Part shown: in pieces, positions 18,277 through 57,543 of the stretch
Layout of the letters: every line of letters begins with the position of its first letter
How positions within the stretch are numbered: the first letter of the stretch is position 1
Assembly: GCA_964014485.1 (NCBI GenBank)
Contig: CAXHAT010000016.1
Span: forward strand, 1 to 59,406
Reading direction: 5' to 3'
DNA from: an uncultured Deferribacteres bacterium
Lineage (GTDB): Bacteria > Zhuqueibacterota > Zhuqueibacteria > Zhuqueibacterales > Geothermadaptataceae
DNA: 59,406 nucleotides
Made by a program: the position numbers and the translations under genes
Notes under the pieces: generated by a model
Database searches by the model: none
What the model was told of the DNA's origin: nothing
Seen by the model: only the letters and a program-made list of their open reading frames with translations

Positions 18277-19881
18277 ATGTTAAACTTATGGAGACGTCTC
18301 ATGGATCGTGATGTCGCAGCGAAACTACTCGCCTTGATGATCTTGTTCGTTACGTTCCTGGCGATTCCGGCTATTGGACAGGAAGTGCAACCGCCGGAAC
18401 AATCGACGACGCAGAATCCCCAAACTGCCGCAGCTTCTCTTTCCCAACCTCAAGAAAAAATTGACTTCGAGGATTTCGGATCATTGTGGAAGCTAACCGA
18501 ATTAGGCGGCGGCATTCGTTGGGCGATTTTCTTCGTCTTCGGCTTGGCCATCCTTTTTATCGTTAATAAACTCTACGAAATTTGGCGGGACGCGATTCGT
18601 TCCAAGAAGCTGGAAAACATCAACTTTGATGAAGCCAGCCTGGAAGCTGTACGCGATCTCCGCAAAGCATCGAAGAAAAGCTTGCTTTCAGAACTTTTGA
18701 GCAAGCAATTTGATGTATATAAGAACACCCAAAAGCCTGAAATTCTCCACGAAGAACTCAACGCTTTTGTCACGCTGCAACAAGAGAATTTCAATCGCTT
18801 TAAGAATCGAATGAACTTTCTTTCCGACACGGCCGGCGCTCTGGGGCTGCTCGGAACTGTCTATGGGATGTTCATTACTTTCTACGGCGGCGACTTGGAC
18901 ACGCAGCGCATTCTCAACGGCATGGGCGTCGCTCTGATTACGACGCTTCTTGGCTTGGTTGTGAGTATTGTGATCAATTTCGCAAGTACGGAAGTTTCAA
19001 ACTTCTTCAGTCGCAGACTTTCCCGTATTTTCACCATCGCCGATTTTATCAGAATGCGATTCTTCGCCAATGTCGAAGATTCTTCGACCTATGAAACGGC
19101 TGTTGCAAACGGGGCAACCGCAAAGTCACTTCCCGGCAGAGCGGAACCTATCGATTTGCGCCTTAAAAGCGTGACCAAATTGGTGCAATCAGCTCCAGTC
19201 GGAAAACACCTTTCAAAGCCTTTCACGGTTCAAACAATCAACAAATTCGGCGTGCCGATTTCCGGCGCTGAAGTGGTTTTTGAAGTTCAAGGCTCTGGAG
19301 GTCTCTTCGCTGACAACCAGAAAAGCATTAAGATCATTTCTAATAAAAAGGGGCATGCAGAGGCTACTTTTCTCCTCAGTCCTGACGTTGGTAAAAGAAC
19401 CGTCGTTGCTCACGCCGCCAAAAATCCGAAAAGTGAAATCGTCTTTCAGGTTCATGGCATTGCCGGGCCTCCCGCTAAACTCGATCATGAAGAAGGCAAC
19501 CACCAAACAGCGAAAGTCAATCAGGCGTTGAATCGACCGTTTGTCATTTCGTTAAGCGACGCTTTTGGCAACCCAATTAGCGATAAAAAGATTGCTTTTA
19601 CGATTGTTCAGGGAGATGGCCAATTTGCCAATCTGGACAACAATGAAGTTGACGACACGAATGGACACAGCCAGGGCTTGAAAAGCGTGTTCAAAAAGAA
19701 AAACGCTCACAACGAAAATGTATTTGAGGTTGAAACGGATGATTTTGGCCGTGCGGAAGCGCAATTGATTCTTGGGCCGGATCCCGGCGTTAACCAGGTT
19801 TCAGCGGTTGCTCGCAGCCTGCCGAAATCACCGGTTACTTTTGAAGCCATGGGGCAAGCCGAGGAGGCGGTTCACGTATGA
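18277..19881 (+). CDS. MotA/TolQ/ExbB proton-channel protein fused to two C-terminal Big_1-like Ig domains
   Basis: Signal peptide and 3 TM with GALGLLGTVYG and GVALITTLLGL. C-terminal repeats Q.A.V...L..PF.V...FG.PIS...F.V..G.G and TDDFGRAEAQLILG. Confidence 0.88.
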   Translation: MLNLWRRLMDRDVAAKLLALMILFVTFLAIPAIGQEVQPPEQSTTQNPQTAAASLSQPQEKIDFEDFGSLWKLTELGGGIRWAIFFVFGLAILFIVNKLYEIWRDAIRSKKLENINFDEASLEAVRDLRKASKKSLLSELLSKQFDVYKNTQKPEILHEELNAFVTLQQENFNRFKNRMNFLSDTAGALGLLGTVYGMFITFYGGDLDTQRILNGMGVALITTLLGLVVSIVINFASTEVSNFFSRRLSRIFTIADFIRMRFFANVEDSSTYETAVANGATAKSLPGRAEPIDLRLKSVTKLVQSAPVGKHLSKPFTVQTINKFGVPISGAEVVFEVQGSGGLFADNQKSIKIISNKKGHAEATFLLSPDVGKRTVVAHAAKNPKSEIVFQVHGIAGPPAKLDHEEGNHQTAKVNQALNRPFVISLSDAFGNPISDKKIAFTIVQGDGQFANLDNNEVDDTNGHSQGLKSVFKKKNAHNENVFEVETDDFGRAEAQLILGPDPGVNQVSAVARSLPKSPVTFEAMGQAEEAVHV

Positions 19882-20288
19882 GCAGGGGCGGAATGATGAT
19901 TCGTTTGATCGACGTCGTCTTTATTCTGCTCTTTGGGTTCATCGCGATCTCCGAAGTTACCGACCGCAGTAAGATAGAATTGCCAAAAAGCGAAAATACG
20001 CCAAAGACGCCGCCGGATCGAGAAAAGCTTTTGATTGTCGGCGTCGCGGATGACGGTTCATACCTCGTCGATAATGAGATGGTTCGGCTCACCAGTCCCA
20101 AGGAGCTGTACAATTATCTCGCGACTAAAAAAGAAAAAGCTGGCGGGGATGCTGCCGGACTCTTGGTTCGGGTGCGCCCCAACTGGAATACGCCAATAAA
20201 ATACACGATGTTGGTCGCTTCCATTTGCGACAAACTGAACATCGTTAAAGGCATGGATGTTAAGCGGACAGGACGTTCCGGGATATAA
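19878..20288 (+). CDS. ExbD/TolR-family protein 1
   Basis: TM segment RLIDVVFILLFGF with the conserved Asp; IELP; ATGA overlap with exbB. Confidence 0.85.
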   Translation: MSRGGMMIRLIDVVFILLFGFIAISEVTDRSKIELPKSENTPKTPPDREKLLIVGVADDGSYLVDNEMVRLTSPKELYNYLATKKEKAGGDAAGLLVRVRPNWNTPIKYTMLVASICDKLNIVKGMDVKRTGRSGI

Positions 20289-20293
20289 TTGTT

Positions 20294-20704
20294 ATGACGC
20301 AAGGCGGAATTATCATCAGATTGATCGATATCGCATTGATCATATTGTTCGGGTTTATCGCGATCAGCGACGTCAACGTTAAAGCGCAAATCAAGCTGCC
20401 GACCCCGATCAAACAGAAAGCTAAAGAAAGTCGCAATCTTTTCCTGATTGTTGAAGTCAAGAACGAAGGCGTTTTTGAACTGGTTGAAGACAAGGAAAGA
20501 TATCGGCTGGAAACGCTTGAGGAATTGGAGCTGAAACTCGTCGAGCTTCGAAACAAGTATTCAGACGAAAAGTTTTCTCTCTACGTCCTCATCAAGCCGG
20601 AAGAAGAGTCCATCGTTCAGCTAACCGTGAGCGTTATGGATCTTTGCACACGACTGGAGCTCCCCAAAAACATAGCGTACAACTATGACGACCTTAACTT
20701 CTAA
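20294..20704 (+). CDS. ExbD/TolR-family protein 2
   Basis: TM segment RLIDIALIILFGF with Asp; IKLP; VSVMDLC. Confidence 0.85.
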   Translation: MTQGGIIIRLIDIALIILFGFIAISDVNVKAQIKLPTPIKQKAKESRNLFLIVEVKNEGVFELVEDKERYRLETLEELELKLVELRNKYSDEKFSLYVLIKPEEESIVQLTVSVMDLCTRLELPKNIAYNYDDLNF

Positions 20705-21758
20705 AAAAGATCGCCTCCGCCAGACTGCGGCGAGCTGGAGCATTACACTCTTGCTCCTGTTATTCTTCTATGTCTTTCTGCGTTTTTTTACGCTGCCGAA
20801 CGACACGGTGGAAGCAAAAGAATATGAGCTTTTGCCCATCGATATTGTTGACATTGAGACGCTGCAAAATCAGGAACAGGCGATTCCGGAACCCAAACCT
20901 GACGTTTCGAAAGTAGATGAGGTGGAAAAGCACAAAACGGTTCAGGAAGAAGAGCCTGAGCCCGAAGCTGATGATGAATTGGTCAAAATGTTTGAAAGCT
21001 CTCTTGCCAGCCAACCTGCTGAGCGCGAGATCGCGCCAGTGTTGGTGAGCACGCAGCAAAATGACGAGAGTATGCAAATAACGGCGTTGCAATCAAGTCT
21101 GAATGCGTTGAGCGCAATAGAATCGTCGGAAACGCCGAATACGCTGGATTTGCCAAGTTTTCCGAATTTGCAAAAAAACCCGACTTCGGCGATTGAAGTT
21201 TCCCTTTCAGAGTCGAACGCCGTTGAGGTGCACGAGAGTCGCAGTAACAATTTGCCGAAAAAACGCAAAAGCCTCGTGAAGCAAAATCCCGTGGCGGAAA
21301 AAGTTGACGTCCCGCTCAAAAAAGCGGACGACTTGGGCAACGATTTTGAAAACTTAAAACCGATATATAAAGCGCTGGTTGAGTGGATGAAAAAAAATCC
21401 GCGCGAACTTAGCAACGTCGTCAGGACGTTTATGGGTTACAAAGCCGGTGATTTAACCTCAAAAGTCGATATCACGCTTTCTGGAACTCCTTGCGAAATC
21501 TTCTTGATCGTTAACGAAGAGCAGTATGAAGTTCGCGTATGTATCGTACAAAACAATGAAGCGACTTTGTTGATCGACAAAGGATTTCGACAACAGAGTA
21601 ATTATTTTCGGATAGGTTCTGTGGTTCGCGCTGCGGAACGGAGAATCGCGAGTTTTGGCACCTCGCAAGAATCCGCTTCCGCTGAAAAGACGACGCAGTT
21701 TTACAGAATCTTCCTTTCATGGTGGGAACAGGTGAATAAAGATGATCAGGACGAATAG
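20685..21758 (+). CDS. TonB/TolA-like energy transducer candidate (N-terminal TM, acidic/Pro linker, unrecognised C-terminal domain)
   Basis: Single TM near the N-terminus; PEPKP and EEEPEPE linker; located directly after exbDD. Confidence 0.6.
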   Translation: MTTLTSKKDRLRQTAASWSITLLLLLFFYVFLRFFTLPNDTVEAKEYELLPIDIVDIETLQNQEQAIPEPKPDVSKVDEVEKHKTVQEEEPEPEADDELVKMFESSLASQPAEREIAPVLVSTQQNDESMQITALQSSLNALSAIESSETPNTLDLPSFPNLQKNPTSAIEVSLSESNAVEVHESRSNNLPKKRKSLVKQNPVAEKVDVPLKKADDLGNDFENLKPIYKALVEWMKKNPRELSNVVRTFMGYKAGDLTSKVDITLSGTPCEIFLIVNEEQYEVRVCIVQNNEATLLIDKGFRQQSNYFRIGSVVRAAERRIASFGTSQESASAEKTTQFYRIFLSWWEQVNKDDQDE

Positions 21759-23286
21759 ATTCTTGGGGCTGCTGCTTGCGGTCGCCCTTTATGGTTTTTT
21801 ATATAGCTGCGCCGGGGGCGGCGGATCAGCTAAAATGAGAAAATTTGACGTTCCTCCAGGTGTGGACAGTACGGTTGCGCGCCAGGCGGACTCGGTCAAG
21901 ATTTTCCTTTTTGCCGAGCCAAAAACGGAAAAAGAAATCAACAAGCTGAAGGAAAAAGCGCGAGAGCGTTTTCAGCGGAGTGATTCGCTCTGGGCGAGAA
22001 TCGCTGAGCGAACCGCAATTTCTCAGCTTGATTCCAACGAAGCGCAAAAGCATGTTGGCAAAGGCAAAGAAGCCCTGAAAGAAATTGCTAGCCATAACGA
22101 TAAGGGCCAAGCGAAGCGCTTAGACCCGGAAACCAACAAGAAGATCGCCCGCTTGCTCGATGAAGCGATCGCCGCTTTTGAGAAAGCGATTTTGTTGAAT
22201 CCGTACGATCTGGATGCAAAAAGCTGGCTCGCACGCGTCTACCGTGTAAAGGCGGATCGTTTACAAAACGAGAAGGATTATGAAAACGCGGCTCGTGTGT
22301 TAGAAGACTTCGTCAAAATTGACAAAAGTCAGCACGACGCTTACTACCGGCTGGGCCAGAATTATTTCCGGATCAGAGCGTGGAAAGCGGCCTATGATTC
22401 GTTTATTGAAGCCGAAAACGTTTTGAAGCAAACCGCTTTCGTAAAAGTAGAAAATCCAGGCGCGACGATGCGCGAACTCGAAGATGCGCCGGTCGACACC
22501 TCGGATTTGTTTTTCTATCGTTACTATCAAGGCGTTACGCAGGCGCGTTTGTATCATGCCGAAAAGTCTCTCGCCATTTTGGCCACTGCGGAAACTCTCG
22601 CGAGTAACGCGGAACAAGCCAAGAGCGTGACTGATTTTATCGATTGGATCAATTGGGACGACGGCAACATCCGCGCTTCCGAAATCCGGGACTCGCTTGT
22701 GGTCTTGCAAAATCGCGAGCAGTTTTCAGGCGCGGCTTCCGGTTTTCTCAGGTTGGTCAAATTCTTGAAAACGCAGCGTGCTCAAGACGAAATCGAATGG
22801 CGCGCTAGCGTGATCGAATATGAAAAGCTGAACAAAAAAGACAATGCTGTCGAACGATTGCAAAAGCTTGCTGCTCGCAGCGGAAAAGCGGGCAACGGCG
22901 CCGTTGCGGACAGTTCCTATCAAAAATATTTTGAGCACTATGCTACGATGTGTTATAACCTTGGCGCTGAAAACGGCGCTGCGCGCAAGTGGCAGACGGC
23001 TTACTCTTACTTTTTGCAAGCGACCAAGATTCCCTGGAAAGGTCGCGCCAAGAGCCACATTGAAATCGCCAAGATTGTGCAAAATAAGCCGGACATGGTG
23101 ATTGAACACGCCCTCGAAGCTCAAAAAGACGAATCATCGCTTTCGTTTGAAGAACGCAAACAGCTTTATCAATTGCTTTCTCTCGCTTACCTGAAGAAGG
23201 GCAAGTCGGAAGAAGCCCGAAAGACAAGAAAGCAATGGCTCGAACTGCAAAAGGAGAATCACCGCAATGCATCTTCACAAATATAG
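21742..23286 (+). CDS. TPR lipoprotein
   Basis: Lipobox FLYS-C; TPR-like units (AIAAFEKAILLNP, AYYRLGQNY). Confidence 0.8.
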   Translation: MIRTNRFLGLLLAVALYGFLYSCAGGGGSAKMRKFDVPPGVDSTVARQADSVKIFLFAEPKTEKEINKLKEKARERFQRSDSLWARIAERTAISQLDSNEAQKHVGKGKEALKEIASHNDKGQAKRLDPETNKKIARLLDEAIAAFEKAILLNPYDLDAKSWLARVYRVKADRLQNEKDYENAARVLEDFVKIDKSQHDAYYRLGQNYFRIRAWKAAYDSFIEAENVLKQTAFVKVENPGATMRELEDAPVDTSDLFFYRYYQGVTQARLYHAEKSLAILATAETLASNAEQAKSVTDFIDWINWDDGNIRASEIRDSLVVLQNREQFSGAASGFLRLVKFLKTQRAQDEIEWRASVIEYEKLNKKDNAVERLQKLAARSGKAGNGAVADSSYQKYFEHYATMCYNLGAENGAARKWQTAYSYFLQATKIPWKGRAKSHIEIAKIVQNKPDMVIEHALEAQKDESSLSFEERKQLYQLLSLAYLKKGKSEEARKTRKQWLELQKENHRNASSQI

Positions 23287-23881
23287 ATTGAATTTGACAA
23301 TTCTCGGCTGCCTGCTTTGGGCGGGCGCAGTTTCCGCGCAGAACATGCCGAGCAAAGTCTCTGTTGAGCGCGTGCATGTGCCGAAAGTTACTCTGACCGA
23401 TACGTCGCTGATTAAATTCTTTGTTCAGGAGTTTTTTATCGACGAAACGCAAGTTGATAAGATTGACATTATCGATGCGACCGGCAACGGCTTCGGCGAC
23501 AAAGACCTTGCGATAACTTATCCCTCGCGTGAAATATATTTCGTTTTTCCTTCAGACACCGCCCAAACGATTATGAACAACTGGCGTTTCACCGCCAACT
23601 TTCAAATTGTTGGCGGCACGGAAAAATCTGAATTTTATGAAAACGCCGAATCCCGCCGTGCGGAAAACGGCATTTTCGCCGCCCTCTTGCGCGGACTTAC
23701 CCGCAATTACAAAGGCGACCCGATGAAAATCAGATTTGAAAAGAAGGACGGCAGCATCGTTTTCGAAATGTGGGGGTATGACGAAGAAAAGCTACAGTAC
23801 TCGCCGCGCGAATTACCAGGCGGTCGAGACGCGATGTTCATTTATACAACCGTAAGCGATACGCTCTATACTGGAAAATAA
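23267..23881 (+). CDS. Hypothetical exported protein
   Basis: Signal peptide ..AVSA-Q; overlaps the upstream stop codon. Confidence 0.75.
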   Translation: MHLHKYRLNLTILGCLLWAGAVSAQNMPSKVSVERVHVPKVTLTDTSLIKFFVQEFFIDETQVDKIDIIDATGNGFGDKDLAITYPSREIYFVFPSDTAQTIMNNWRFTANFQIVGGTEKSEFYENAESRRAENGIFAALLRGLTRNYKGDPMKIRFEKKDGSIVFEMWGYDEEKLQYSPRELPGGRDAMFIYTTVSDTLYTGK

Positions 23882-24183
23882 ATAAAGCCGACAGTCTTGT
23901 CGGCTCAAGCTGCGCATGCCCAGGACGGGTAGTGCCAGGCTGCATATTTTGTTGGACGCAACATAGATAAACTCCTCGCCGACGCCAACTTTATGCTCCA
24001 ATACGGCTGGACGGAAAATTGAATTTTGCATCGTTCCCGGGCAATCGGGAATGGCGAAACATACACTTGCTGACAGCCTTTACAGTCCGTTACTCGCGAT
24101 CATCGAGATTTTCGAAGATCGTTAGAAGTTGCAATCTTCTGTTGGTACGTTTTTAATACATAAGACTTTAGGAGTGAAGTCTG

Positions 24184-26388
24184 ATGATGCAGCGACGCGT
24201 AAAAAATTTCTTTAAAAGCGCCATTTTTGCATCGGCGTTTCTTCTCACGGCAACGGCTTTTGCTGAAACAGAGGGCGAACCCGAATTCGTCTTGCAAGAG
24301 CCCGCTTGCACCGATTCCATTCACATTGTCATTTCCGCCGACACCATCCGCGCGGGCGTGGAAAGCTTCTGGGTCGATATCTACGTCGGTTCAGAGACCA
24401 TGCCGGTGGACAGTTTGTTTGGCGTTAGCTTTGAATTAAACTTCAATTTCGCCGATTACTTGCGTCTGGCCGGACTGGAGAAAGAAAGTCTGTTTCCCGG
24501 CCCGCTCTTGGGCGATGAACAAGATTTGGCCTGGCTGGCCGTACCAGATTTTCCGAACGGCGTGATCCGCACCGGCGTTACGCGAAAATCCGAGGCTGGG
24601 AACACCGAAGGACACGGTTTGCTGTTCCGGATGAACTTTTTCCCGACCAGCGACATGCCGGATTTTTCCGAAGTCGAATTTTCCCTTTCAAATATCGCCT
24701 GGCGCGACGCAAACGGCGACACGCTCTACTTTTGCCATGACGTTCAGAAAACGCTCATTCTTCGACCGAAAGATTTTACACTTACGGTCACGCCCGACTC
24801 AACGCGAATCGGCAAAGGCGAGCAGACGCAATATGAAATCAATCTGGAACCGATTGGCGGCTTTGCACGGGAAGTCAATCTTGGTCTGGTCGAAAATCAC
24901 CTTGGCGTGAGCGCAGAATTTTCCAGCCCTACCATTTCGCCCGACACGAGCCCGGTATTTTTGAACCTGGCTACGAACGGGCAAAGCAGCGAAGGCGTCT
25001 ATCCGATCACGGTCACTGCAGCCGTCGATACATTTTTTCAGCAAGATGCAACGATTCTCGCAATTTACGAAATCCCGTTATTCCCAAGCTCGGCTTCATC
25101 GGAGTATATGTCGGGGGCGGAATTTACCATCGACCTGGAAATCGGCGGAATCGATCGGGAAGTTGTTGACTTGAAACGGCTGGCATTTACGCTGCAATAC
25201 TCGGATCCGCAGTACATACAACCGGCAACGGAAGCCGCTGATTTTGTGAGCGCCGGAGAATTTGTCGGACGGCGTGATGACATTACGGTTGAACGTTCGG
25301 ACAATGAAGGCTTGGTTTCGCTCGACTTTGATTTGCCGAGCGGCGTTTCCGGGCTTGGCTCGCTGGCGCACCTGCGTTTTACAAGTGTTATTGAAACGCC
25401 GGACGGGCGTGACGTTAACTTTGCGTTAAGCGATATTTCTGCATTTAACTCGAAAGGGGATACAATATTCCTGAGGCCTGAAGCATTTTCTGTGACCATT
25501 CTTGAACAGATCGATTTTGTTTTGCATATCAACCCGACTGACACGAGCGTTTTGGCCGGGAATGCCGCGCAATATGAAATCAGCCTCACTGGAAGCCGGT
25601 CTTTTGATACTGACGTCCCGCTGAGAATTTTGGGACTTCCGACCGAATTTCTACCAGATTTACAACCAAACTTTGTTTCCCGTACTTCTCCTGCGCTGTT
25701 GACAATTCCAACGGATACGTCGACGGCTGAAGGAGAATATCCGTTCACCGTTCAGGGACAAGCGGACGATATAGAACGCGAAGTCGCAGGGCTTTTGCGC
25801 GTTGTTCCGGCAGCGCTGTTTACCTTGCAGATTTCACCTGAACGACGCGATATATTTCCGGGAGACTCCGCACTTTTTGTAGTTTCGGTGCTCGATGCGG
25901 AACACCTGGACGTTCCCGTCGAACTCGAGTTTGTTGGCTTTGAAGGGTTAGCTTGGGCTGTTCCCCAACTTTCACCGCAAAGGATTGCACCGGAATCGCC
26001 TGCCGAATTGATATTGTCCACGTCGAACCAGGCACGGGTCGGACAATACTCCTTTCGCGTTATTGGCAGGAGTGGGAACTCCACGCGTGATGCAAGCGCC
26101 GAGGTTCATATCCTCGAGCCGCCGCCGCGCGTGCGCCCAAATCCGTTTACGCCAAATAACGACGGTTTCAATGATCATGTGATTTTCGATTTTGACGAAC
26201 TAAGAACCGGCGGCGGAGAAATCATTATTTTCGACGTCAACGGAAGAAAAGTAAAGCAGCTCTCCGGAGCGCAGCGTTGGGACGGGACGGACAACAATGG
26301 AAAAGACTTAAAACCCGGCGCCTACCTTTATGTTGTCAGATTTGGTGAAGACACGCTAGATAAAGGCGTTATCGGTCTGGCAAGATAA
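24184..26388 (+). CDS. T9SS type B (gliding-motility/CHU_C) CTD protein with cohesin-like and Ig-like repeats
   Basis: Signal peptide; C-terminal PNPFTPNNDGFND..IFDVNG..WDG..GAYLY; two cohesin-like segments; three F.L.[VI].P Ig repeats. Confidence 0.82.
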   Translation: MMQRRVKNFFKSAIFASAFLLTATAFAETEGEPEFVLQEPACTDSIHIVISADTIRAGVESFWVDIYVGSETMPVDSLFGVSFELNFNFADYLRLAGLEKESLFPGPLLGDEQDLAWLAVPDFPNGVIRTGVTRKSEAGNTEGHGLLFRMNFFPTSDMPDFSEVEFSLSNIAWRDANGDTLYFCHDVQKTLILRPKDFTLTVTPDSTRIGKGEQTQYEINLEPIGGFAREVNLGLVENHLGVSAEFSSPTISPDTSPVFLNLATNGQSSEGVYPITVTAAVDTFFQQDATILAIYEIPLFPSSASSEYMSGAEFTIDLEIGGIDREVVDLKRLAFTLQYSDPQYIQPATEAADFVSAGEFVGRRDDITVERSDNEGLVSLDFDLPSGVSGLGSLAHLRFTSVIETPDGRDVNFALSDISAFNSKGDTIFLRPEAFSVTILEQIDFVLHINPTDTSVLAGNAAQYEISLTGSRSFDTDVPLRILGLPTEFLPDLQPNFVSRTSPALLTIPTDTSTAEGEYPFTVQGQADDIEREVAGLLRVVPAALFTLQISPERRDIFPGDSALFVVSVLDAEHLDVPVELEFVGFEGLAWAVPQLSPQRIAPESPAELILSTSNQARVGQYSFRVIGRSGNSTRDASAEVHILEPPPRVRPNPFTPNNDGFNDHVIFDFDELRTGGGEIIIFDVNGRKVKQLSGAQRWDGTDNNGKDLKPGAYLYVVRFGEDTLDKGVIGLAR

Positions 26389-26438
26389 TTGTTTTAAGCA
26401 GTTCCATTCCTGTCCAACTCAAAGCATCTCAACGCACT

Positions 26439-28160
26439 ATGAAAACGAATATTCGAAATACATTTGGGACGTTATGTCTCATTCTCGCTGGCTTTGCGCC
26501 GCGGTCGTCCGAAGCGCAAACCTATCAGGAAGCCAGCCCGGTTGATCTTTACGAATCGCAAATTGCGTTCATCAATCCTGCGGCAATTGCGTTTCAGGAC
26601 GCTCAATTCGTTGTTGGTTCGCGAATTCTGCACTACGGATTCGTCTCGAACAATTCAGACGGTTTGAGCAACAGTTTTATGAACGTTTCTTTTCCTTCGC
26701 TGACGCCTTTAAACATCGGAGCCGGACTGATCGCTTCGAACTTGAAAGCGTCGATTTACAGCGAAAACCGGTTGAACCTGATTACATCTTTGAAATTTGA
26801 TGACAAAATCGGCGTCGGCGTACAAGTCGGACTCTACTCAAGATCATTCGATCTGAGCGGAGCTGTCATTGTCGATCCAGGCGATCCGATTCTTGAAGAC
26901 GGCGCGTCAAAGTTGCTCTTTAACATGGGCGCGGGCGTTTTCTACCAAGTCAACGATCAGCTCCAGCTCGGTCTTGGCGTGGAAAATATCAATCGTCCGG
27001 ACATTTCTCTTGAAAATTTAAGCATTCGCCAAAACAGCGTTATGAACATCGCCGCCAATTACAATTTCAAAAACTGGGGAGAAGCCAGTCTCGGTTATCT
27101 CTGGAATGGCGACAGGTTTCTGCCCATGCTTGGCCTCACGACTTCAGTTCAAGGCATTGGCGCGCTTAAATTCGGTTTGCTCACCGGCAATTTTGATGTT
27201 GGCACGCAGTTGCACATAACTGAGAAGATCAGCTTTGATTATCGGTACAGCATGCCGATTTCTGATATAAATTCGTACAGCAACGGCTCGCACCGCGTCA
27301 GCTTCGCCTATCGTTTTGGCGACATTCCGACGGTTGACTTTGAAATTAGCGCGTCGGAAGATTCTCTGCGAATCGTTGAGAGAAAACTTGCTCAACGTTT
27401 TGAAGACGGGCTTGGGCCGGATGCGACCGGGAGCTTCGATTTGATGCGCGGTTTGAAGGACGCGTTGGACCCGATCAATCACTATTATCGATTTACGCCT
27501 TTCGCCGATCCGCGCACGGTAACGGAAGCTGATGTTGAATCTTATGTAAGAGCTTTTGGTTATGTGATCGAGCCGCTTGCGGAAAAGCTGGCTGCAAACG
27601 CGACGATGCGCGCGCGAATCATTGCATCCAAAAACAAGACGCACGTCGCCAAAGCCTTGTGCGGCTATTTGAGCGAAAAGTATGGCGTCGCGCAGCATCG
27701 TCTGGAGTACGGTTTTATTGAAAACAAAACACACGCCTTACTGCACAACGGAACAAATGGAGACGCTCATGAAAAAAACGTGACTACACAGCCGAATGAA
27801 ATGACCATGTTTTCCATCACGCCGATCATCAAGCGGAAATACAACCGTATGAATGGAATCAAGTCATGGAAATTCATCATTGAGAATAGCCGCGGCGAGC
27901 CGGTGCGTGTATTTCAGGGCAAGGAAGCGCCTCCGGAGAAGCTGTTTTGGGACTGGACTGGATCGGACGGAAAGACCGTCGGCGTTGGCAAGTACGGCTA
28001 TTATTTGCAATGGCAGAGCAAGGGAAGCAGCGTTCAAAAATCAAGGAAGAATTTTGTACACGTTTCCAAATTTGTTCGAGAAATCGACGTTTTGTTTTCA
28101 AGAAAAATCTTAATTCAAGAGGCAGAGCCTCAGAGAGTGGACTTGCATCTGGGCATATAA
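26439..28160 (+). CDS. PorP/SprF-family T9SS outer-membrane beta-barrel with a ~280-aa C-terminal extension
   Basis: Motifs NPAA, DPGDP, NINRPDIS and GSHRVSFAYRFG; adjacent to the type B CTD gene. Confidence 0.82.
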   Translation: MKTNIRNTFGTLCLILAGFAPRSSEAQTYQEASPVDLYESQIAFINPAAIAFQDAQFVVGSRILHYGFVSNNSDGLSNSFMNVSFPSLTPLNIGAGLIASNLKASIYSENRLNLITSLKFDDKIGVGVQVGLYSRSFDLSGAVIVDPGDPILEDGASKLLFNMGAGVFYQVNDQLQLGLGVENINRPDISLENLSIRQNSVMNIAANYNFKNWGEASLGYLWNGDRFLPMLGLTTSVQGIGALKFGLLTGNFDVGTQLHITEKISFDYRYSMPISDINSYSNGSHRVSFAYRFGDIPTVDFEISASEDSLRIVERKLAQRFEDGLGPDATGSFDLMRGLKDALDPINHYYRFTPFADPRTVTEADVESYVRAFGYVIEPLAEKLAANATMRARIIASKNKTHVAKALCGYLSEKYGVAQHRLEYGFIENKTHALLHNGTNGDAHEKNVTTQPNEMTMFSITPIIKRKYNRMNGIKSWKFIIENSRGEPVRVFQGKEAPPEKLFWDWTGSDGKTVGVGKYGYYLQWQSKGSSVQKSRKNFVHVSKFVREIDVLFSRKILIQEAEPQRVDLHLGI

Positions 28161-28164
28161 GGCC

Positions 28165-30993
28165 ATGAGGAAAATTGGGCTAATATTCGGGGCATTCGTG
28201 CTTTTCCTTTGTTGTGCTTCAGGAATTGCGCAACAGGCGGACACGACGGCCTGGTACAAACACGCAGGATATACGGGCGTAGACCAAGGGAATGGTCTGG
28301 CCGTAGACAATAATGGCGCTGTCATAGTCGCCGGGCAATTCGAGCGTACGCTGGCGATGAACCCTTTGACGGTGACAAGCCGAGGGCGCAGTGATATTTT
28401 TATCGCAAAATACTCTGCGGCTGGAGAAATACAGTTTTTGAGTCGCGCGGGCGGGCCGGGAAATGACCGCGCCTACGACGTTGCAACTGACTCGGACGGA
28501 AACATCATCATCGCGGGTGCGCTTGACGGCGACGGTGTGGATTTTGGACATGTAACGCTGAGTTCAAATGGCGGCAACGACGCTTTTGTTGCAAAATACA
28601 ACGGCAGCGGCGACTTGCTTTGGGCCAGAAATTTCGGCGATCAGTTCTATGATCAAGCTTACGAAGTGACCGTCGATGAAGAAGACAATATTGTTATCAC
28701 GGGATGGTTCTACGGCGAGCTTGCTTTCGATGCTGAGACATTAAACAGCGGCGGCGAAAGCGATGCGTTTATTGCGAAGCTGAGCCCTGACGGTTCAACG
28801 CTATGGGCGCGCCAAGGCATGGGCAACGCCGCGGACCTTGGATACGGCGTGGCGTGCGGCGAAAATGGTGAAGTTTTCGCCTGCGGCATTTTTCGTGGAG
28901 AAATCTCCTTCAACGATTTGAGCTTAACCAGCAACGGCTTGACGGACATGTTCATCGTCAAATATGATCGTGACGGCGAACTGGTGTGGGGAAAGAATTT
29001 TGGCGGTGAAGCGTCTGACCGCGCGTACGCGCTCGCTTTCGATCAAACGAACGGCGTTGTCGGACTGGCCGGATATCACGAAGGTCGCGGCAGTTTTAAT
29101 GACGCACCGGAGCGTGTTTTTGAATCGCCAAACGGTGACCGCAATATTTTCATCGCTTCAATGGATCGTGACGGCAACCTGCTCTGGGGACGGTCGGAAG
29201 GCAGTCCGCTTGACGATCAGGGACGAGGAATCGCGATTGATGATGAAGGCTTTTTCTATGTCACCGGCGCATTTGCGAGCGTCGCAACCATCGCCGAGAG
29301 TTCGATGAAGAGCAGCGGCACTTTGGACGTATTTCTGGCGAAATATACAAAAACCGGTCATCCGGTTTGGGCGGATCACGTTGGCGGAGGCCCCGATCTT
29401 GATTGGGGCTTGGACATTGAACCTGACGCCAGCGGCAACGCTATTGTGGCGGGGCACTTCAAAAAGACGGCGTTTTTCGGTGGGAATCGATTTATAAGCC
29501 GGGGCAATCAGGACATTTTTCTGGCGAAAGTCGCTCAGCCATTCAATCTTGGCGGCGTAAAGCTTTCAGCGCCGAAGCAGCACTTTATCGATAGCGAATT
29601 CAGCCTGGACATTAAATTTGACCAAGCGGACAATATTCACGAAATTGAAGTGGACGTCACTTTTTCGAACCTAAATGACGTCTTTGCAGTGGAAGATTCC
29701 GTCTTCCCTGAAAAATACTTCGGTGACAATCCGGAGTTTAGCTACAGTGTGGACAACGCCGCCGGGAAAATTCATCTGCGCGCCAAAAAGCGACGGAAAG
29801 GCGGAGACAAAAACGCCGCGTTTGCTCGCATCGTTTTCAATACTCGGCGATCCACGCCCTTTGAAGCGCGGAGCGATTTTCATGTCGAAAATATTTTTGC
29901 GCGCGACGAATTGGGGCGCTACGTTTTTCTGAGAATGGATCAAGTCGACGTACAATTTGTCGGCGTTTCGGTTTGGCCTGGAGACGCCAACAACGACGGC
30001 CAGGTGAATGAGCGGGATATTTTACCGATAGGACAATATTTTGATTCTGAAGGCCCGGCCCGCGCAAGCGCTTCCGGAGACTGGGAACCGCAGAAAGTGG
30101 TTCCGTGGAAACCGCCTGCCGCGAGCTATGCTGATGCAAACGGCGACGGCGTCGTCAACCAGGAAGACCTCCTGCCCATTGGTCTAAATTGGATGAAGGT
30201 ATGGGATAATCAGACGACAGCTGCAAAACGGCGTGGAGTATCAAGGCATGGCTTTGTCCAATCTTCCGGCACGGGAGATATTGGAATGCAGGCGGCAAAT
30301 CTCGACACAACGACGGACGCGGTGTGGATCGAAGTCGCCGTGGACAGCGTCGAAGACCTTTATGGCCTTTCCTTCGAAGTTCATTACCCTCAAAACGGCT
30401 TCACTGACGCCCTGCAAATTGATGTCGGCCCCATGTTCGATGACCCGATTTTCTTTTCGAATAACAATGAGGACGAAGGCGTTATTGGCGTCGCCATGAC
30501 GCAAAAAGGGACGCCTGTCGGCGTTTTCGGTGAAGGCGTTGTGACAAGAATTCTGTTCGCGCTCAACGGTGTTAGCTCGGAAGAGCTTCTTGACAGCCTG
30601 CGGATGGAAGGCGTTACAGGCAATGACTCAGAAGGCCGAACGATTGAGTTCAGGCTAAAGCAACGCGGAGTGGTCACAAGTATCGCAGACGACGAAAACT
30701 CCTCTATTCTCCCGGAAAGCTTCCACCTTTATCAAAACATGCCGAATCCGTTCAACCCGGAAACGCGCATCCGTTTTTCTCTGGCTCAGGCGGGAAACGT
30801 CCAACTGCTGATTTATAACGAATTTGGCCAGTTGGTTCGCGCCCTGGTTGACGAATTCCGCGGCCCCGGTCAACACAGCGTTAATTGGGACGGGCGCGAC
30901 TCCAGAGGAACGCAAGTCGCAACTGGAATTTATTTCTATCTTTTGCGCTCGGAGCAAACTTCTCAAACGAGAAAAATGCTTCTCATTCGGTGA
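28165..30993 (+). CDS. Secreted beta-propeller (SBBP-like repeat) protein with cohesin-like and dockerin domains and a T9SS type A/FlgD CTD
   Basis: Repeats D.F[IV]AKY...G..LW; dockerin-like WPGDANNDGQVNERDIL and ADANGDGVVNQEDLL; CTD LYQNMPNPFNP..WDGRD..RKMLLIR. Confidence 0.88.
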   Translation: MRKIGLIFGAFVLFLCCASGIAQQADTTAWYKHAGYTGVDQGNGLAVDNNGAVIVAGQFERTLAMNPLTVTSRGRSDIFIAKYSAAGEIQFLSRAGGPGNDRAYDVATDSDGNIIIAGALDGDGVDFGHVTLSSNGGNDAFVAKYNGSGDLLWARNFGDQFYDQAYEVTVDEEDNIVITGWFYGELAFDAETLNSGGESDAFIAKLSPDGSTLWARQGMGNAADLGYGVACGENGEVFACGIFRGEISFNDLSLTSNGLTDMFIVKYDRDGELVWGKNFGGEASDRAYALAFDQTNGVVGLAGYHEGRGSFNDAPERVFESPNGDRNIFIASMDRDGNLLWGRSEGSPLDDQGRGIAIDDEGFFYVTGAFASVATIAESSMKSSGTLDVFLAKYTKTGHPVWADHVGGGPDLDWGLDIEPDASGNAIVAGHFKKTAFFGGNRFISRGNQDIFLAKVAQPFNLGGVKLSAPKQHFIDSEFSLDIKFDQADNIHEIEVDVTFSNLNDVFAVEDSVFPEKYFGDNPEFSYSVDNAAGKIHLRAKKRRKGGDKNAAFARIVFNTRRSTPFEARSDFHVENIFARDELGRYVFLRMDQVDVQFVGVSVWPGDANNDGQVNERDILPIGQYFDSEGPARASASGDWEPQKVVPWKPPAASYADANGDGVVNQEDLLPIGLNWMKVWDNQTTAAKRRGVSRHGFVQSSGTGDIGMQAANLDTTTDAVWIEVAVDSVEDLYGLSFEVHYPQNGFTDALQIDVGPMFDDPIFFSNNNEDEGVIGVAMTQKGTPVGVFGEGVVTRILFALNGVSSEELLDSLRMEGVTGNDSEGRTIEFRLKQRGVVTSIADDENSSILPESFHLYQNMPNPFNPETRIRFSLAQAGNVQLLIYNEFGQLVRALVDEFRGPGQHSVNWDGRDSRGTQVATGIYFYLLRSEQTSQTRKMLLIR

Positions 30994-31015
30994 TTGAACG
31001 GTCAAGCTTCGCGCG

Positions 31016-31054
31016 AAAAAGCGCGGCATTCTATAAGGATGCCGCGCTTTTTTT
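31016..31054. terminator. Bidirectional rho-independent terminator
   Basis: AAAAA-GCGCGGCAT..ATGCCGCGC-TTTTTTT between convergent genes. Confidence 0.85.
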
Positions 31055-38881: not shown

Positions 38882-41800
38882 TTATCTCACCACTGTCATC
38901 CGCAAACTCTTCACAAAATCTTGGCTTCTGAGCACATAATAATAAATCCCTGAACTCACCGGTAAGCCGGATTCATTGCGGCCGTCCCAGGCGATTTGAT
39001 AGAATCCGGCGGGCTTTGCGTCGTTGACCAAGGTGCGTACGCGACGGCCAAGCAGGTCGTAAACTTCAAGCACTGTGGTCGCGTCTTTGGCAAGCTGGAA
39101 TTTGATCCAGGTGTGCTGCGAGCGCGCCGAGAACGGGTTTGGGTAATTCTGCGAAAGCTTGAATTCTATCGGGGTTAAGACTTCGGCCACGTCTTCCATC
39201 CTCCGTCTCCCATCTTTCGCTGCAAGGATCGCGGCGGATTCAACGCCAATGACGGCGGCGTAAGCGTCAAACCAAGTCTCGGCCATCACGTCATAACCGC
39301 GGTCGTTCGGATGCAGGTCTTCGACCATGTAGTCATTGCCGTTGCCGGTGAAAAGATCGGGATTGCTGTCGAACGGCGTGTGATGATCAACTAAGCGAAC
39401 CGGCTCCGGCGCTCCGGTGATCGCACCATTTGCGAAATCATTGATGAGTCGAGCGATTTCATCATTCAATTCCGCCGTCTGGCTCTCGCGGTCGCCGCGC
39501 GGGATGATTCGGCTGACGAAGACGTGCTCGACGAAATTGCCTTTTATGCCGTTGCGCCATTGCAAAACATAATTTACCAGATCGCCCATTTCACCGGAAG
39601 TCGTCAGAGCCATCGTCTGGCCGCCGTCTTCGGAATAAGGCGTGAGACTCGTTTCATTGCTCAGATCATTCGTCCCGAGATGAATCATAACAAATTGCGG
39701 CTGGTACAAGCCCATCGTTCCGGCGAGGTCTTTTTCACCGCTGCCAGAACCGTTGCCGAAACTGGACGGGTAAAAATCTTCGATGCTTTTTCCTGAATAG
39801 AAATGCCCTTCGTACGGCGCGACGCCTTCCGGCCCGATGAATTCGACGTCTTCTCCCGCCGAATTCAGTAAGTTGTACAATTCCGGACGGAAGCCCAAAC
39901 CGTCGGAACTGCCGACGCCGTCGGTGATGGAGTTGCCGACCAAGAGAATGCGCTTTGCTTGCGAGTCGCTTTCTTTTTGGGCGACCTCAATTGCTGAAAT
40001 CAGCGGATTCTCCAAAACGCGCCCGAATTCAATTTCTAACACGCCGTCGTCGACGAAGACTTCAAAATTATAGACCAGCGCCGCGTCGTGCCCGGCGACG
40101 GCGTGAATATCAAGACCATTCAGTACCCGCTCGCCTTCAATATCCACATCGAACCTACGCTTGCCGGATTCCTTGTAATAGGTCTCTGCAAAACAGAGTT
40201 GCACCGCGTAAGTCGCCGCTTCCGGCACGGTGAAATGATAGCCGTCCAGCCGATAGCGATTGGTTTGGTAGAGCGCGTCGTCGCTGGCGTTGGCAATATT
40301 GTCGTTGGTTGAGCTTAGGCCGGTGCGTGAGCCGTCGTAGCCCCACGAACCGTCTGAAAATTCCTGATCCGCTTGCCAAAAACGGCCGTCGCTGCCGGTG
40401 TAGCTGCCGCCGCCCGCGTTGACGCGCTGTGCCCAACTTGCTCTTTCTGCGGTAGCAAAAGTAAAATCTCCACTTATCGCCGTATTGCCCGCAGCATCGG
40501 TTGAAATGACGCGATAATGATAAATCGTATTGGCTTCCAGGCCGGTGATTGCTTGGTTGTGCGCGGTGACAAGCGCCGGATCAAGCGCGGTAGAATTTCC
40601 ATAACCGTCATCAAGACCGTGTTCGATTTGAGAATCTGAAGCTTCGTCGGTGCCCCACGAGACGGTTGCGCTCGAAGAGGTCACGCCGTTGACGATCACG
40701 TTTGAAATGACCGGCGGCGTTTCATCCGGCGGGAGCGTCGTGAAGGTGAAGTCCGAACTTGCGGCTGCGTTGCCGCTCGCATCTTTCGAATGCACGCGAA
40801 AATGATAGGTTGTGTTTGGCTGTAAGCCGCTGAGTTGCTGGCCGTGAGAATTGGTCAGCGCCGGATTGAGCGAGCTCTCATTGCCGTAGCCTGCGTCCAG
40901 ACCGTATTCGACCTGAGAATCGGCCGGCTCGTTTGTCAACCAGGAAATCGTCGCACTCGATTGCGTCACGCCGTTTGCTGTAACGTTGGAAATCACCGGC
41001 GGTGCGTCATCGATTTCCGAGCGTACTTCAATCGCGCAAATGAGCGGATTTTCCAACACGCGGTTAAATTCAATTTTTAGCTCGCCGTCGCTCACTTCAG
41101 TCGTGAAATTGAAAACGAACGCCGCGTCATGACCAACTTCCTCGATTAAATCGAGATCACTTAAAACCACCTGATCTTCAATCTCGACGTCAAATTTGCG
41201 CTTGCCGGATTCAGCGTAATAAGTCTCCGCAAAATGCAGCTCCACGAAATAAACGCCGTTTTCCAGCTCAAAACGATAACGATCCAGGCGGTAGCGATTT
41301 GACTGATACAGCGCATCGTCGTTGGTGTTGGAAATAGCGTCATTTGCGGAGCCGACGCCGGTGCGGGCGCCTTCGTGCCCCCAAGTATTGCCGGACTTGG
41401 CTTGGTCGGCGTCCCAAACGCGCCCGTCGTCGCCGGTAAACGCCTCGCCGCCGACATTCACGCGTTGCACAAAAGTAGGCGTCGGTTCAACGGCCGTCGT
41501 GAAGGTGAAATTCGCGCTTACGGCACGATTCCCGCTTTCATCCTTCGAAATGACGCGATAATGATAAGTCCTGTTTGGCGACAAGCCGCTTAAATTTTGG
41601 CTGTGGCTGGAGACCAAATTTGCGTTGAGCGGGGTCAAATCGCCGTAGTTCTCGTCCAGACCGTACTCGATTTGTGAATCAGACGGTTCGTCCGTGTCCC
41701 ATGAAATCGTCGCACTGGACGAAGTAACATTGTCTTCGGAAACATTGGAAATGCTTGGCGGCGTTGCGTCGATATCGTGGGTCGTGAAAGTAAAATCTCG

Positions 41801-49729: not shown

Positions 49730-50206
49730 TTATTCAGCTCTGAGGATCCGGTGCTTTGTCGAATAGCTATCATCAAGAAGTACCAACTGCTTTCCGAGTT
49801 TTTTCGCCGCGTTCAGAAGAATGGGCCCGCTCAGATTGGAAGTGGATTGATATATATCCTGCTTAAGAGTTACTATAACATACATTTTTGGTCTTTGCGG
49901 ATGCTCAATCTCAAGCTCTTTTAAATCGCGTCGGGAGACGTTCGGCTTGTAAGACGGCAAAAATATGGAGGGATCCGCAAGCAAAAAATCAACATCGGGG
50001 TCGTCGATGCTGATCATCCAGATAAAAGGCAAGTAACTCTCTCTCTCAACCAGAATATAGCGCTTCTTCTTATCAAAACCAAGAATGCCCTGGGCAAAAA
50101 AAATTATATCTTCTTCATTATATTGAATAGTCCCCAATTTTTTGTGTGACAACTCAAAGTCTTTTTTTGCTTCAAAGGAATGCGCTTTGAGAACTGATGA
50201 ACTCAT
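49730..50206 (-). CDS. fliW: Flagellar assembly factor FliW
   Basis: IIFFAQGILGF, PFIWMIS and TSNLSGPILLN..GKQLVL; AGGAG RBS before the ATG at 50206; adjacent to csrA. Confidence 0.88.
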   Translation of the reverse strand: MSSSVLKAHSFEAKKDFELSHKKLGTIQYNEEDIIFFAQGILGFDKKKRYILVERESYLPFIWMISIDDPDVDFLLADPSIFLPSYKPNVSRRDLKELEIEHPQRPKMYVIVTLKQDIYQSTSNLSGPILLNAAKKLGKQLVLLDDSYSTKHRILRAE

Positions 50207-50460
50207 TTTTTCTCCTAAATCAACAAGCTCTACGACGCTGTCAGGCGTAGAGTGGAATGCGGCTGCGACATAAACATGCAACTCCTCTGATCAATGCCGG
50301 GCAAAGAAAAGAAAGTTCGCTTGTATGTGCAAGAAGTATAAAACCAAAAAAACGCGATAAATTGTACAGAATCAGGCGTCTTCAGCGAGAAACGTACAAA
50401 CTTTGAGCTACGAAAACAAAGAGAATGTGAACATGTTGTCAAAAAAACTGAGGACGACGC

Positions 50461-52859: not shown

Positions 52860-52875
52860 GGTGAATCATTGATCT

Positions 52876-53484: not shown

Positions 53485-53494
53485 AGCGCCTCCC

Positions 53495-54979: not shown

Positions 54980-55011
54980 CTCAAATTCTCAATCGTAGAA
55001 TGTTAAAACTC

Positions 55012-55078
55012 AACGCGGAGGCGCAAAGAACGCAGAAAAAAAATCCAAAAAACTCTGCGTCTCGGCGCACTCTGCGTT
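55012..55078. repeat. AACGCAGAG..CTCTGCGTT-type intergenic palindromic repeat
   Basis: AACGCGGAGGCGCAAAGAACGCAGA ... CTCTGCGTCTCGGCGCACTCTGCGTT. Confidence 0.6.
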
Positions 55079-55084
55079 AAAAAA

Positions 55085-57433: not shown

Positions 57434-57543
57434 AAATCGACTCAGGTTTTTTTTGTTGTAGACATGAACAAAAAGAGTGTAAGCCTGGAATGAAGTTTTT
57501 GGAAGAAATATTGGACTAATGAGCAGACAGTTCTCGCAAACGA

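Follow-up and report, generated by a model that had tools for sequence, protein, structure and literature searches.

Force from an ion-driven motor in the inner membrane reaches the outer membrane or the cell surface in only a few systems that are understood (Ton, Tol, flagella, GldLM and Agl-Glt). Nine genes on a 59,406-nucleotide stretch of DNA from an uncultured Deferribacteres bacterium (assembly GCA_964014485.1, contig CAXHAT010000016.1; the whole stretch is called 'the window' below) raise the question of whether another such system exists and, if so, what it would drive. Six of these genes (p1 to p6) encode an ExbB-type protein, two ExbD-type proteins, a membrane-anchored protein with a long linker, a tetratricopeptide repeat (TPR) lipoprotein and an exported protein. 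The other three (p7 to p9) encode type IX secretion system (T9SS) proteins: a cargo with a type B C-terminal domain (CTD), a long PorP/SprF outer-membrane barrel and a second cargo. An earlier reading by a model that saw only the letters of the DNA (the 'sequence-only reading') had suggested that this motor energises secretion, release or movement of T9SS cargo in a lineage that may lack GldKLMN. With moderate confidence, we instead interpret the nine genes as one copy of a conserved, self-contained, envelope-spanning module, in which proton-driven force would be transduced onto a PorP-anchored adhesin. The window corresponds to contig C16 in a metagenome bin of 8.4 Mb (465 contigs, 97.0% complete, 0.8% contaminated), and all of the genomes compared with it are likewise metagenome bins.

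We searched 40 relatives with p1 and found full-length orthologues in the family, order and class to which the window's genome belongs. A first set of loci was assembled from ~20 kb around 20 of these orthologues (one per genome, with matches covering the ExbB part and most of the protein). A long PorP gene (569–663 aa) adjoins the motor block in 18 of the 20 loci, and in the two exceptions (L044 and L047) the contig ends ahead of the place where PorP is expected. The window's own family has the order p1 to p9, with the PorP/type B pair downstream of the motor; in other families the type B gene and PorP are located directly upstream of p1, with p2 to p6 coming next and, often, a second p5-like gene after them. 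The adjacency has therefore survived rearrangement. A second set, obtained by scanning the collection with an alignment of p6 (A1), comprised 34 loci, including 12 places common to the first set. PorP was found beside the block in 23 of them, and in 10 of the remaining 11 the contig or locus stops on the side that should hold PorP. Across both sets the motor block is linked to PorP/SprF and type B CTD genes in 31 of 42 distinct places, and contig ends truncate ten of the 11 others. The claim that such blocks neighbour T9SS genes, rather than genes for TonB-dependent receptors, TolB or Pal, was borne out in the loci examined: none of these three was identified among the proteins matched there (where not every flanking ORF was annotated), and no Plug domain is present among the module proteins. 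In one KSB1 family a second p5-like TPR gene is positioned 3' of p6 (loci L053, L058–L062, L087, L088, L090, L094 and L096).

The association also holds at the level of whole genomes. Our KSB1 sample consisted of 121 genomes, 97 of them high-quality (one unpublished genome, G016, is included, and G023 is among the 41 genomes in the p1 search; neither is decisive). The p6 profile, which serves as a marker of the module, matches 43 of the 121 (39/97 high-quality). A profile of the long PorP (alignment A3, E ≤ 1e-20) matches every one of the 43 p6-positive genomes and 6 of the 78 p6-negative genomes. One of those six (G031) contains a module cut by a contig end (L048), and the other five matches are barrel-only, to frames of 779–867 aa of the PorP-OmpA kind described below. 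The less sensitive NCBIfam PorP model gave 40/43 and 17/78, respectively.

Three oddly labelled module-bearing bins were followed up, and the phylum samples of two of them (G135 and G133) share no genome with 130 KSB1 genomes. In the order of G133, p6 matches 11 of 61 genomes; the long PorP is present in exactly the six genomes with a strong p6 match, in none of the five with a weak match, and in 0/50 without any p6 hit. In five of the six carriers p6 and the long PorP are ~6 kb apart on the same contig and strand. These counts were made with profile A3, as the NCBIfam model TIGR03519 was too insensitive in this order (PorP in 6/61, missing the PorP of G133's own module). The module thus appears to be present in at least three GTDB phyla, its presence in that of G135 resting on one possibly mis-binned bin.

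Within the window's genome itself, searches with phmmer located three complete modules, on contigs C16, C48 and C3, every one of which has a separate long PorP and (by Pfam) a separate CHU_C cargo. The C48 module contains a TPR protein, an FG-GAP/CARDB/CHU_C cargo of 1183 aa, a long PorP, an ExbB with an immunoglobulin-like (Ig) tail, two ExbD, and p4, p5 and p6. In the C3 module (L223:7028-18918), a long PorP and ExbB are accompanied by a CHU_C cargo of 474 aa, a VWA/cohesin cargo of 942 aa whose tail is type-A-like, two ExbD, and p4 to p6; its two cargo genes are located between exbB and exbD, inside the motor operon. Relatives carry two to four p6 matches each, and the multiplicity of the module is therefore old. 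The C3 cargo has a cohesin domain and p9 of the window has a dockerin, and cargos of different modules might pair through these two domains. A fourth gene of the PorP family, on contig C185 (L225:6004-8394, minus strand), encodes a protein of 796 aa in which a PorP/SprF barrel (77.7 bits) is joined to an OmpA peptidoglycan-binding domain, and is located beside the gene for a type A CTD protein, without motor genes. On the same contig (L225:10506-11971, minus strand) a gene for DarT, a single-stranded DNA thymidine ADP-ribosyltransferase, adjoins a macro-domain gene, and the two look like a DarTG toxin–antitoxin pair.

At the locus in the window, the open reading frame (ORF) list and translations place nine plus-strand ORFs within 18277–30993, at the coordinates and with the domains reported by the sequence-only reading (Table 1). 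Junctions between successive genes from p1 to p6 measure −4, +5, −20, −17 and −20 bases, so that these six overlap or nearly abut and the description of them as translationally coupled, or nearly so, stands. The gap between p6 and p7 is +302 bases, and p7 to p9 are closely spaced (+50 and +4 bases). The terminator that had been placed at 31016–31054 was found, displaced by a single base. Because this gene arrangement recurs in related genomes, it is not due to chance. The 25 other window ORFs of at least 110 aa gave no match at E ≤ 1e-5 to Plug/TonB-dependent receptor, TolB or Pal families, as the sequence-only reading had noted.

Table 1. Genes and transcription-related features of the motor–PorP block, in window coordinates.
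Feature	Position	Strand	Family or basis
p1, ExbB/TolQ-type stator subunit with C-terminal Ig tail	18277..19881	+	PF01618, Big_1
p2, first ExbD/TolR-type subunit	19878..20288	+	PF02472
p3, second, distinct ExbD/TolR-type subunit	20294..20704	+	PF02472
p4, candidate force transducer: transmembrane helix, disordered linker, C-terminal domain	20685..21758	+	alignment A2, AlphaFold2 model
p5, TPR lipoprotein	21742..23286	+	weak TPR matches, lipobox-like N-terminus
p6, exported protein of a small unnamed family, module marker	23267..23881	+	signal peptide
Hairpin just 3' of the p6 stop codon, without a T tract on the plus strand	23886..23906	+	terminator-like on the minus strand only
p7, type B CTD surface protein (cargo)	24184..26388	+	CHU_C, TIGR04131
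p8, long PorP/SprF outer-membrane barrel with C-terminal extension	26439..28160	+	PF11751
p9, second cargo: SBBP repeats, dockerin, CTD	28165..30993	+	Pfam, NCBIfam
Intrinsic terminator closing the block	31015..31053	+	18-pair stem, 8 G-C pairs, T run

The first three genes encode what is recognizably a stator. p1 matches MotA_ExbB with 56.5 bits (cut-off 22.9) over residues 134–247 and has three transmembrane (TM) helices, and p2 and p3 match ExbD with 41.4 and 44.2 bits (cut-off 25.4). Every complete module has both ExbD paralogues. The ExbB motifs GLLGTV-x-GM and AL-x-TT, and the TM aspartate ('R-x-I-D') of both ExbD paralogues, are retained in at least 90% of 23 sequences; because the aspartate and the channel motifs are kept, the module stator is probably active. 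Elsewhere the genome contains 49 Plug hits, 12 TonB_C hits and approximately ten other ExbD genes that score 52–106 bits, and the six module ExbDs (from all three modules) score 27–43 bits. With ordinary Ton machinery present elsewhere and such low scores for its own ExbDs, the module therefore represents a divergent, specialised branch.

The C-terminal 240 residues of p1 contain two Big_1-like Ig domains (Big_1 27.9 bits at residues 316–382; two stretches when the tail is searched alone). There is no hydrophobic stretch beyond the third TM helix, and by analogy with the known topology of ExbB the tail is probably cytoplasmic. Domains of this type are usually extracytoplasmic, and here they occupy residues ~300–534, on the presumed cytoplasmic end of an ExbB-type protein. 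Orthologues of p1 range from 258 to 694 aa, with zero, one or two Ig domains, and the tail is therefore optional; where present, it could be a docking point for a cytoplasmic track or regulator.

At the other end of the block, p8 matches PorP_SprF (PF11751) with 57.4 bits (cut-off 22.3), with the barrel at residues ~38–293. It scores 72.3 bits against TIGR03519, under the cut-off of 90.55, and is therefore a divergent member of the PorP/SprF family. An extension of ~280 residues follows the barrel; its length is conserved, it ends in a FlgD-Ig-like part, and W504, W506, G517 and Y519 near its end are invariant in alignment A3. Its likeness to FlgD-type Ig domains is weak: FlgD hits in p8 are at E 0.018, the C3 paralogue has a FlgD_ig match (E 1.2e-5), and ESM Atlas neighbours of the FlgD_ig/OmpA families score no higher than 0.82 and provide a lead only. 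Searched alone, it gave no Pfam hit.

The two cargos differ in how clearly they can be classed. p7 matches CHU_C with 40.5 bits and the type B model TIGR04131 with 36.6 bits (cut-off 35). p9 had been called a type A CTD cargo, and it does pass the type A model TIGR04183, barely (23.8 versus 23); it also passes Pfam CHU_C (30.8 versus 27), and the class of its CTD is thus not clean. p9 is kept downstream only in the window's own family. Among 19 large ORFs linked to modules, many of which begin at the edge of the fetched stretch and may have truncated N-termini, CHU_C is found at E ≤ 1e-4 in 18 (the miss is at L071). Their passenger regions contain FG-GAP (integrin-like) repeats, ASH/HYDIN-type Ig, CARDB, cadherin-like and Big_5 domains, and none of the 19 has a catalytic domain. 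By domain content the cargos are adhesin-like.

Between stator and barrel are the products of p4, p5 and p6. p4 consists of an N-terminal TM helix, a charged disordered linker of ~170 residues and a conserved C-terminal domain of ~150 residues, with W234, D298, W346 and W347 invariant across the 18 sequences of alignment A2. In the AlphaFold2 model, the predicted local distance difference test (pLDDT) score is ~90 for residues 225–357 and below 50 for residues 105–203; the linker (residues ~40–203) is disordered, and the end domain is modelled as short helices, a six-stranded meander and a long helix. The protein matches no Pfam or NCBIfam family, and its relatives form 24 clusters, all named only 'hypothetical protein'.

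The sequence-only reading had called p4 'TonB-like', and its topology does fit that description; its sequence does not. The TonB_C model (PF03544) gave no hit on the C-terminal domain alone, even at E ≤ 10, and the same model hits 12 places elsewhere in the genome. None of the 18 aligned sequences has a histidine in the TM helix, where a threonine is nearly invariant; a histidine at this location (SHLS motif) has been described as essential for the docking of TolA and TonB (PMC12204202). By Pfam, the end domain is not a vWA domain. Structure comparisons with the C-terminal domain gave no match at E ≤ 0.001 to the PDB (Foldseek), and nothing above 0.81 or a TM-score of 0.45 in the ESM Atlas. 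The highest Z that VIA-align reached over 48,161 chains was 7.1 (6dhx, TipC2), a value inside the background range given for the tool, with no TonB, TolA, GldM or PorM chain in the best 50 rows. The sole hit in a profile search of the PDB with p4 was MotB (6ysl, E 0.0012), over the TM helix and linker. These fold searches exclude no family.

p5 has weak TPR hits (TPR_14, 27.8 bits), an N-terminus reading ...LYSC-AGGG, and no TolB-like, carboxypeptidase-like or OmpA-like domain in Pfam or NCBIfam searches; it consists of the TPR part only. By a strict pattern a lipobox-like motif is present in 28 of 44 first-copy p5 relatives, and several of the misses display Cys-[Ala/Gly]-Gly by eye. The second-copy p5-like proteins and p6 have plain signal peptides. 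p6 had no match in Pfam, NCBIfam or a profile search of the PDB, and its family amounts to 139 clusters at E ≤ 0.001 among 1.84 billion representatives; its AlphaFold2 model has a mean pLDDT of 60.7. A complex prediction for PorP (residues 26–573), p6 (25–204) and the p4 C-terminal domain (205–357), with alignments included, scored 0.13 against a mark of 0.32, a value that counts neither for nor against binding.

We also examined the secretion system that this genome would use to export the cargos. Two of the components that the sequence-only reading had listed for a search, SprA and PorV, are present: SprA as a 2108-aa frame (872 bits with its parts), and PorV at 247.9 bits (cut-off 250), with ~24 weaker paralogous matches. 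The genome also encodes PorU (825 bits) and many proteins that match only CTD models. The suggestion that the lineage may lack GldKLMN is consistent with what we found. No match to GldL, GldM or GldN (TIGR03513, TIGR03517 and TIGR03523) was obtained anywhere in the 97%-complete genome, the module included. Positive controls covered the GldM and GldL models: two Bacteroidota genomes found by a 16S probe site gave 450 and 342 bits for GldM and 232 and 214 for GldL. The GldK model (TIGR03525) hit only FGE-sulfatase domains (best 78 bits versus 350), in approximately ten ORFs. The two candidates that were inspected, neither of which has gldLMN-like neighbours, were rejected: one is a 504-aa protein that joins a multihaem cytochrome of the NapC/NirT type to an FGE-sulfatase domain (C262, L021:7179-8693, minus strand), and the other an 863-aa CHAT-TPR-FGE-sulfatase fusion encoded beside a bAvd-like gene and a DDE transposase (C343, L022:861-5217, minus strand).

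The same pattern extends across the sampled lineages. SprA is present in 119 of the 121 KSB1 genomes, including all 97 high-quality ones, and GldM in none of the 121. GldM was found in 0/31 genomes of the G135 phylum sample versus 7/31 of the G133 phylum sample. In G133's order no genome exceeds the GldM cut-off (0/61), and a comparison of GldM with the module for complementarity there failed for that reason. Two partial hits in that order (58–59 bits) are to frames of 343–345 aa that match only positions 228–512 of the GldM model (G198:C6:27193-28053 and G242:C149:5141-5872), and may be divergent or truncated GldM-like periplasmic proteins. Sequence models can miss very divergent GldLM-like proteins. 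With SprA near-universal in KSB1, and GldM undetectable there and in two other sampled lineages, these surveys sharpen the question of what powers type IX secretion beyond the class Bacteroidia.

From comparative genomics we establish a functional unit of eight core genes, encoding the type B adhesin, the long PorP, ExbB, two ExbD, p4, p5 and p6. In the mechanism that we favour, an ExbB-type pentamer would surround a heterodimer of the two different ExbD-type proteins, forming a proton-driven stator in the inner membrane. p4 would act as a membrane-anchored transducer, with a disordered linker long enough that it could span the periplasm, and the lipoprotein p5 and periplasmic p6 would be adaptors. 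The barrel of the long PorP/SprF protein would reside in the outer membrane, with its C-terminal extension in the periplasm to receive the force, and would hold the type B CTD adhesin-like protein at the cell surface. The stator would then work mechanically on the barrel–adhesin complex, either to complete secretion or deployment of the adhesin or to pull or move it on the surface, with each module serving its own cargo. Gene content, conserved linkage, co-occurrence, intact motor residues, adhesin-like cargo domains and the lack of detectable GldLMN are observations; the parts of this mechanism that we infer are its stoichiometry, every contact between proteins, where the PorP extension lies and what work is performed (secretion, release, tensioning or propulsion).

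Several points weigh against this interpretation. The protein contacts are deduced, and every carrier is a metagenome bin. Because p4 lacks the TM-helix histidine by which TolA and TonB dock, its coupling to the stator is an assumption. The model of p6 is of low confidence, and the folds of p6 and of the PorP extension are unassigned. The 302-base gap and hairpin between p6 and p7 would permit separate motor and cargo transcripts at this locus. Finally, the parts of the module are not always together: the 11,995-base locus L092 has nothing of the module but p6 and a p5-like gene, at L077 p4, p5 and p6 come immediately after PorP with exbB and exbD absent nearby, and an orphan p6-like gene on contig C84 is located beside genes for a peptidase and an ABC permease. 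L077 belongs to a variant, also observed at L076 and L080, that has a longer p4 (412–415 aa) and no exbB or exbD within 9 kb downstream.

Among other explanations, the one that fares best is that of an envelope tether. The module would then tie the outer membrane to the wall and inner membrane in the manner of Tol-Pal or PorE, stabilising the anchor without performing work on the cargo. With its succession of genes for TolQ-like, TolR-like and TM-linker proteins, a TPR lipoprotein and a periplasmic protein, the module is reminiscent of tolQ-tolR-tolA-tolB-pal-cpoB, and the fourth PorP of the genome carries a fused OmpA domain. In most non-proteobacteria, CpoB is reportedly an outer-membrane lipoprotein with TPRs, and PorE of Porphyromonas gingivalis is reported to unite CpoB, TolB and Pal in one fusion, which may take up force from a protein resembling TolA or TonB (PMC12204202). 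PorE is required for the type B cargo in that organism (PMC10202324). The PorP-PorE-PG1035 system resembles the module in combining PorP with a TPR-bearing lipoprotein and a type B cargo (PMC10202324, PMC12204202). Unlike PorE, however, p5 has the TPR part alone, and the motor family is different. The likeness to Tol-Pal with CpoB (PMC12204202) is similarly limited to gene order and the TPR lipoprotein: neither TolB nor an OmpA/Pal family is found among the module proteins, and no TolB or Pal in the window. Moreover, pairing this tight with a particular adhesin gene, and multiple copies per genome, would not be expected of general envelope maintenance. We consider a tether unlikely.

A general replacement motor, which would energise the SprA translocon for all T9SS cargo in lineages without GldKLMN/PorKLMN, was the strong form of the proposal in the sequence-only reading. 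The proposal gains from the absence of GldL, GldM and GldN matches here (and of GldM throughout KSB1) with models that work in Bacteroidota, from the presence of SprA, PorV and PorU, and from a one-to-one correspondence in kind between the module's parts and PorL, PorM, PorK and PorN, both sets comprising a stator, a periplasmic protein with a TM anchor, a lipoprotein and a periplasmic protein. In P. gingivalis porP is co-operonic with porKLMN, and PorP reportedly counts as part of a 'PorKLMNP core complex'. Against this explanation stands the distribution of the module, the marker of which is present in 43 of 121 KSB1 genomes versus 119 for SprA, and SprA-bearing families f3, f4, f13, f17 and f21 display neither p6 nor PorP. 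Three paralogous copies, each beside its own cargo, are a misfit for a single shared core, and most CTD proteins are encoded elsewhere (for example, the 2360-aa protein at 38882–45964). We therefore regard the module as improbable in the role of the lineage's T9SS motor. Because approximately two thirds of SprA-bearing KSB1 genomes are without the module, and carriers have several copies with separate cargos, these data fit an accessory, cargo-dedicated system.

Comparably improbable, in our judgement, is energised import, with the long PorP acting as a gated channel that the motor opens in the style of a TonB-dependent transporter, while surface proteins capture the substrate. The layout is indeed Ton-like, with a stator of the same family and channel residues as ExbB-ExbD-TonB, and a transducer with the topology of TM helix, spacer and globular end, next to an outer-membrane barrel. 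Some of the cargos have binding modules (SBBP repeats and a dockerin for p9, cohesin and VWA domains for the C3 copy), and the window contains glycoside hydrolase genes (GH95 and an amylase-family gene). In contrast to Ton systems, the module has two ExbD paralogues and lacks Plug, TonB_C, the TM-helix histidine and a nearby Plug receptor, although Plug and TonB_C are abundant elsewhere in the genome. Its conserved partner is a type B CTD protein with adhesin-like repeats, with an enzyme domain in 0/19, and the PorP/SprF family is known for anchoring cargo (PMC10202324). That the motor and cargo operons are chance neighbours without any functional link, as the gap and hairpin between p6 and p7 and the wealth of CTD proteins in the genome might suggest, is hardly credible given adjacency in 31 of 42 loci across rearrangement, cargo genes inside the C3 motor operon, and co-occurrence in 43/43 KSB1 genomes and in 6/6 strongly p6-positive genomes of a second phylum.

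The interpretation of the module as a force-transducing, adhesin-dedicated system finds its closest parallels in two gliding machineries. In Flavobacterium johnsoniae (GldLM/GldKN-SprF-SprB) the gene for a PorP/SprF barrel likewise adjoins that for a type B adhesin, and the system includes a lipoprotein and a periplasmic protein. Type B cargos depend on, and are anchored by, the adjacent PorP/SprF protein, and both secretion and surface movement of SprB need the proton-driven inner-membrane motor GldLM (PMC10202324). The module differs in that its motor is a true MotA_ExbB/ExbD stator encoded beside PorP once per cargo, its PorP has an extra 280 residues, and homologues of GldL, GldM and GldN are undetected (with GldK not found among the candidates inspected). 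The Agl-Glt machinery of Myxococcus xanthus (and the paralogous Agl-Nfs) combines one TolQ/ExbB-type protein with two different TolR/ExbD-type proteins, described as an AglR pentamer with an AglQ/AglS heterodimer. It couples this motor, through TPR proteins and TM-anchored transducers whose periplasmic linkers are long and disordered, to an outer-membrane platform and a surface adhesin, and outer-membrane barrels are also among its parts (PMC11761067). There, GltG and GltJ end in TonB-CTD-like domains, whereas p4 has no TonB_C match; the module's adhesin is a T9SS type B cargo on a PorP barrel, and p4, p5 and p6 are compared with Glt proteins by described features. By analogy, the module looks like a hybrid of the GldLM-SprF-SprB and Agl-Glt designs, built from Tol/Exb-type parts. 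A bolder possibility, which we hold only tentatively, is that it constitutes an independent machine for adhesin propulsion or tensioning, a third kind of gliding or 'focal adhesion' apparatus with a heterodimeric Tol/Exb stator like that of Agl-Glt and an adhesin mounted in the Bacteroidota manner, by a type B CTD on a PorP/SprF barrel. Equally tentatively, it could be an extant relative of the evolutionary stage in which Tol/Exb systems gave rise to T9SS-associated motors.

A further comparison is with clusters of TolQ-like, two TolR-like and TPR proteins that have TM-anchored vWA transducers, for which the authors suggest a role in gliding (PMC12204202). p4 differs from those transducers both at its end, which is not vWA by Pfam, and in its TM helix without histidine. 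A PorP-linked motor or type B cargo partner is not mentioned in the parts of that vWA/PorE survey available to us (PMC12204202), and among titles and abstracts on the T9SS, ExbB/ExbD/TolQ and PorP/SprF we found no description of a motor–PorP module, and no paper that joins KSB1 with type IX secretion. As far as this literature shows, the module is undescribed in print. Via three nameless protein families it links a classical stator of the ExbB/ExbD type genetically to a PorP/SprF anchor and the adhesin of that anchor, and points to an undescribed machine that would deploy or move a surface protein. It also supports the suspicion, voiced in the same survey, that PorE and other accessory parts of the T9SS communicate with transducers of the Tol/Ton kind. 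As a compact candidate system of eight genes, it would be suited to the study of how PorP-type anchors are energised, a step that is obscure even in Flavobacterium.

The rest of the window contains several other genes of note, all on the minus strand. The 2360-aa protein encoded at 38882–45964, which combines four malectin and seven purple-acid-phosphatase N domains with fn3 repeats, a GDSL lipase domain and a FlgD_ig-like C-terminus, is probably a very large T9SS cargo. A gene for FliW (119 bits) at 49730–50281 hints that the organism is also flagellated. A cluster at 50706–57547 encodes Planctomycete-type cytochrome C (PSCyt1), DUF1549/DUF1553 and DUF1501 proteins.

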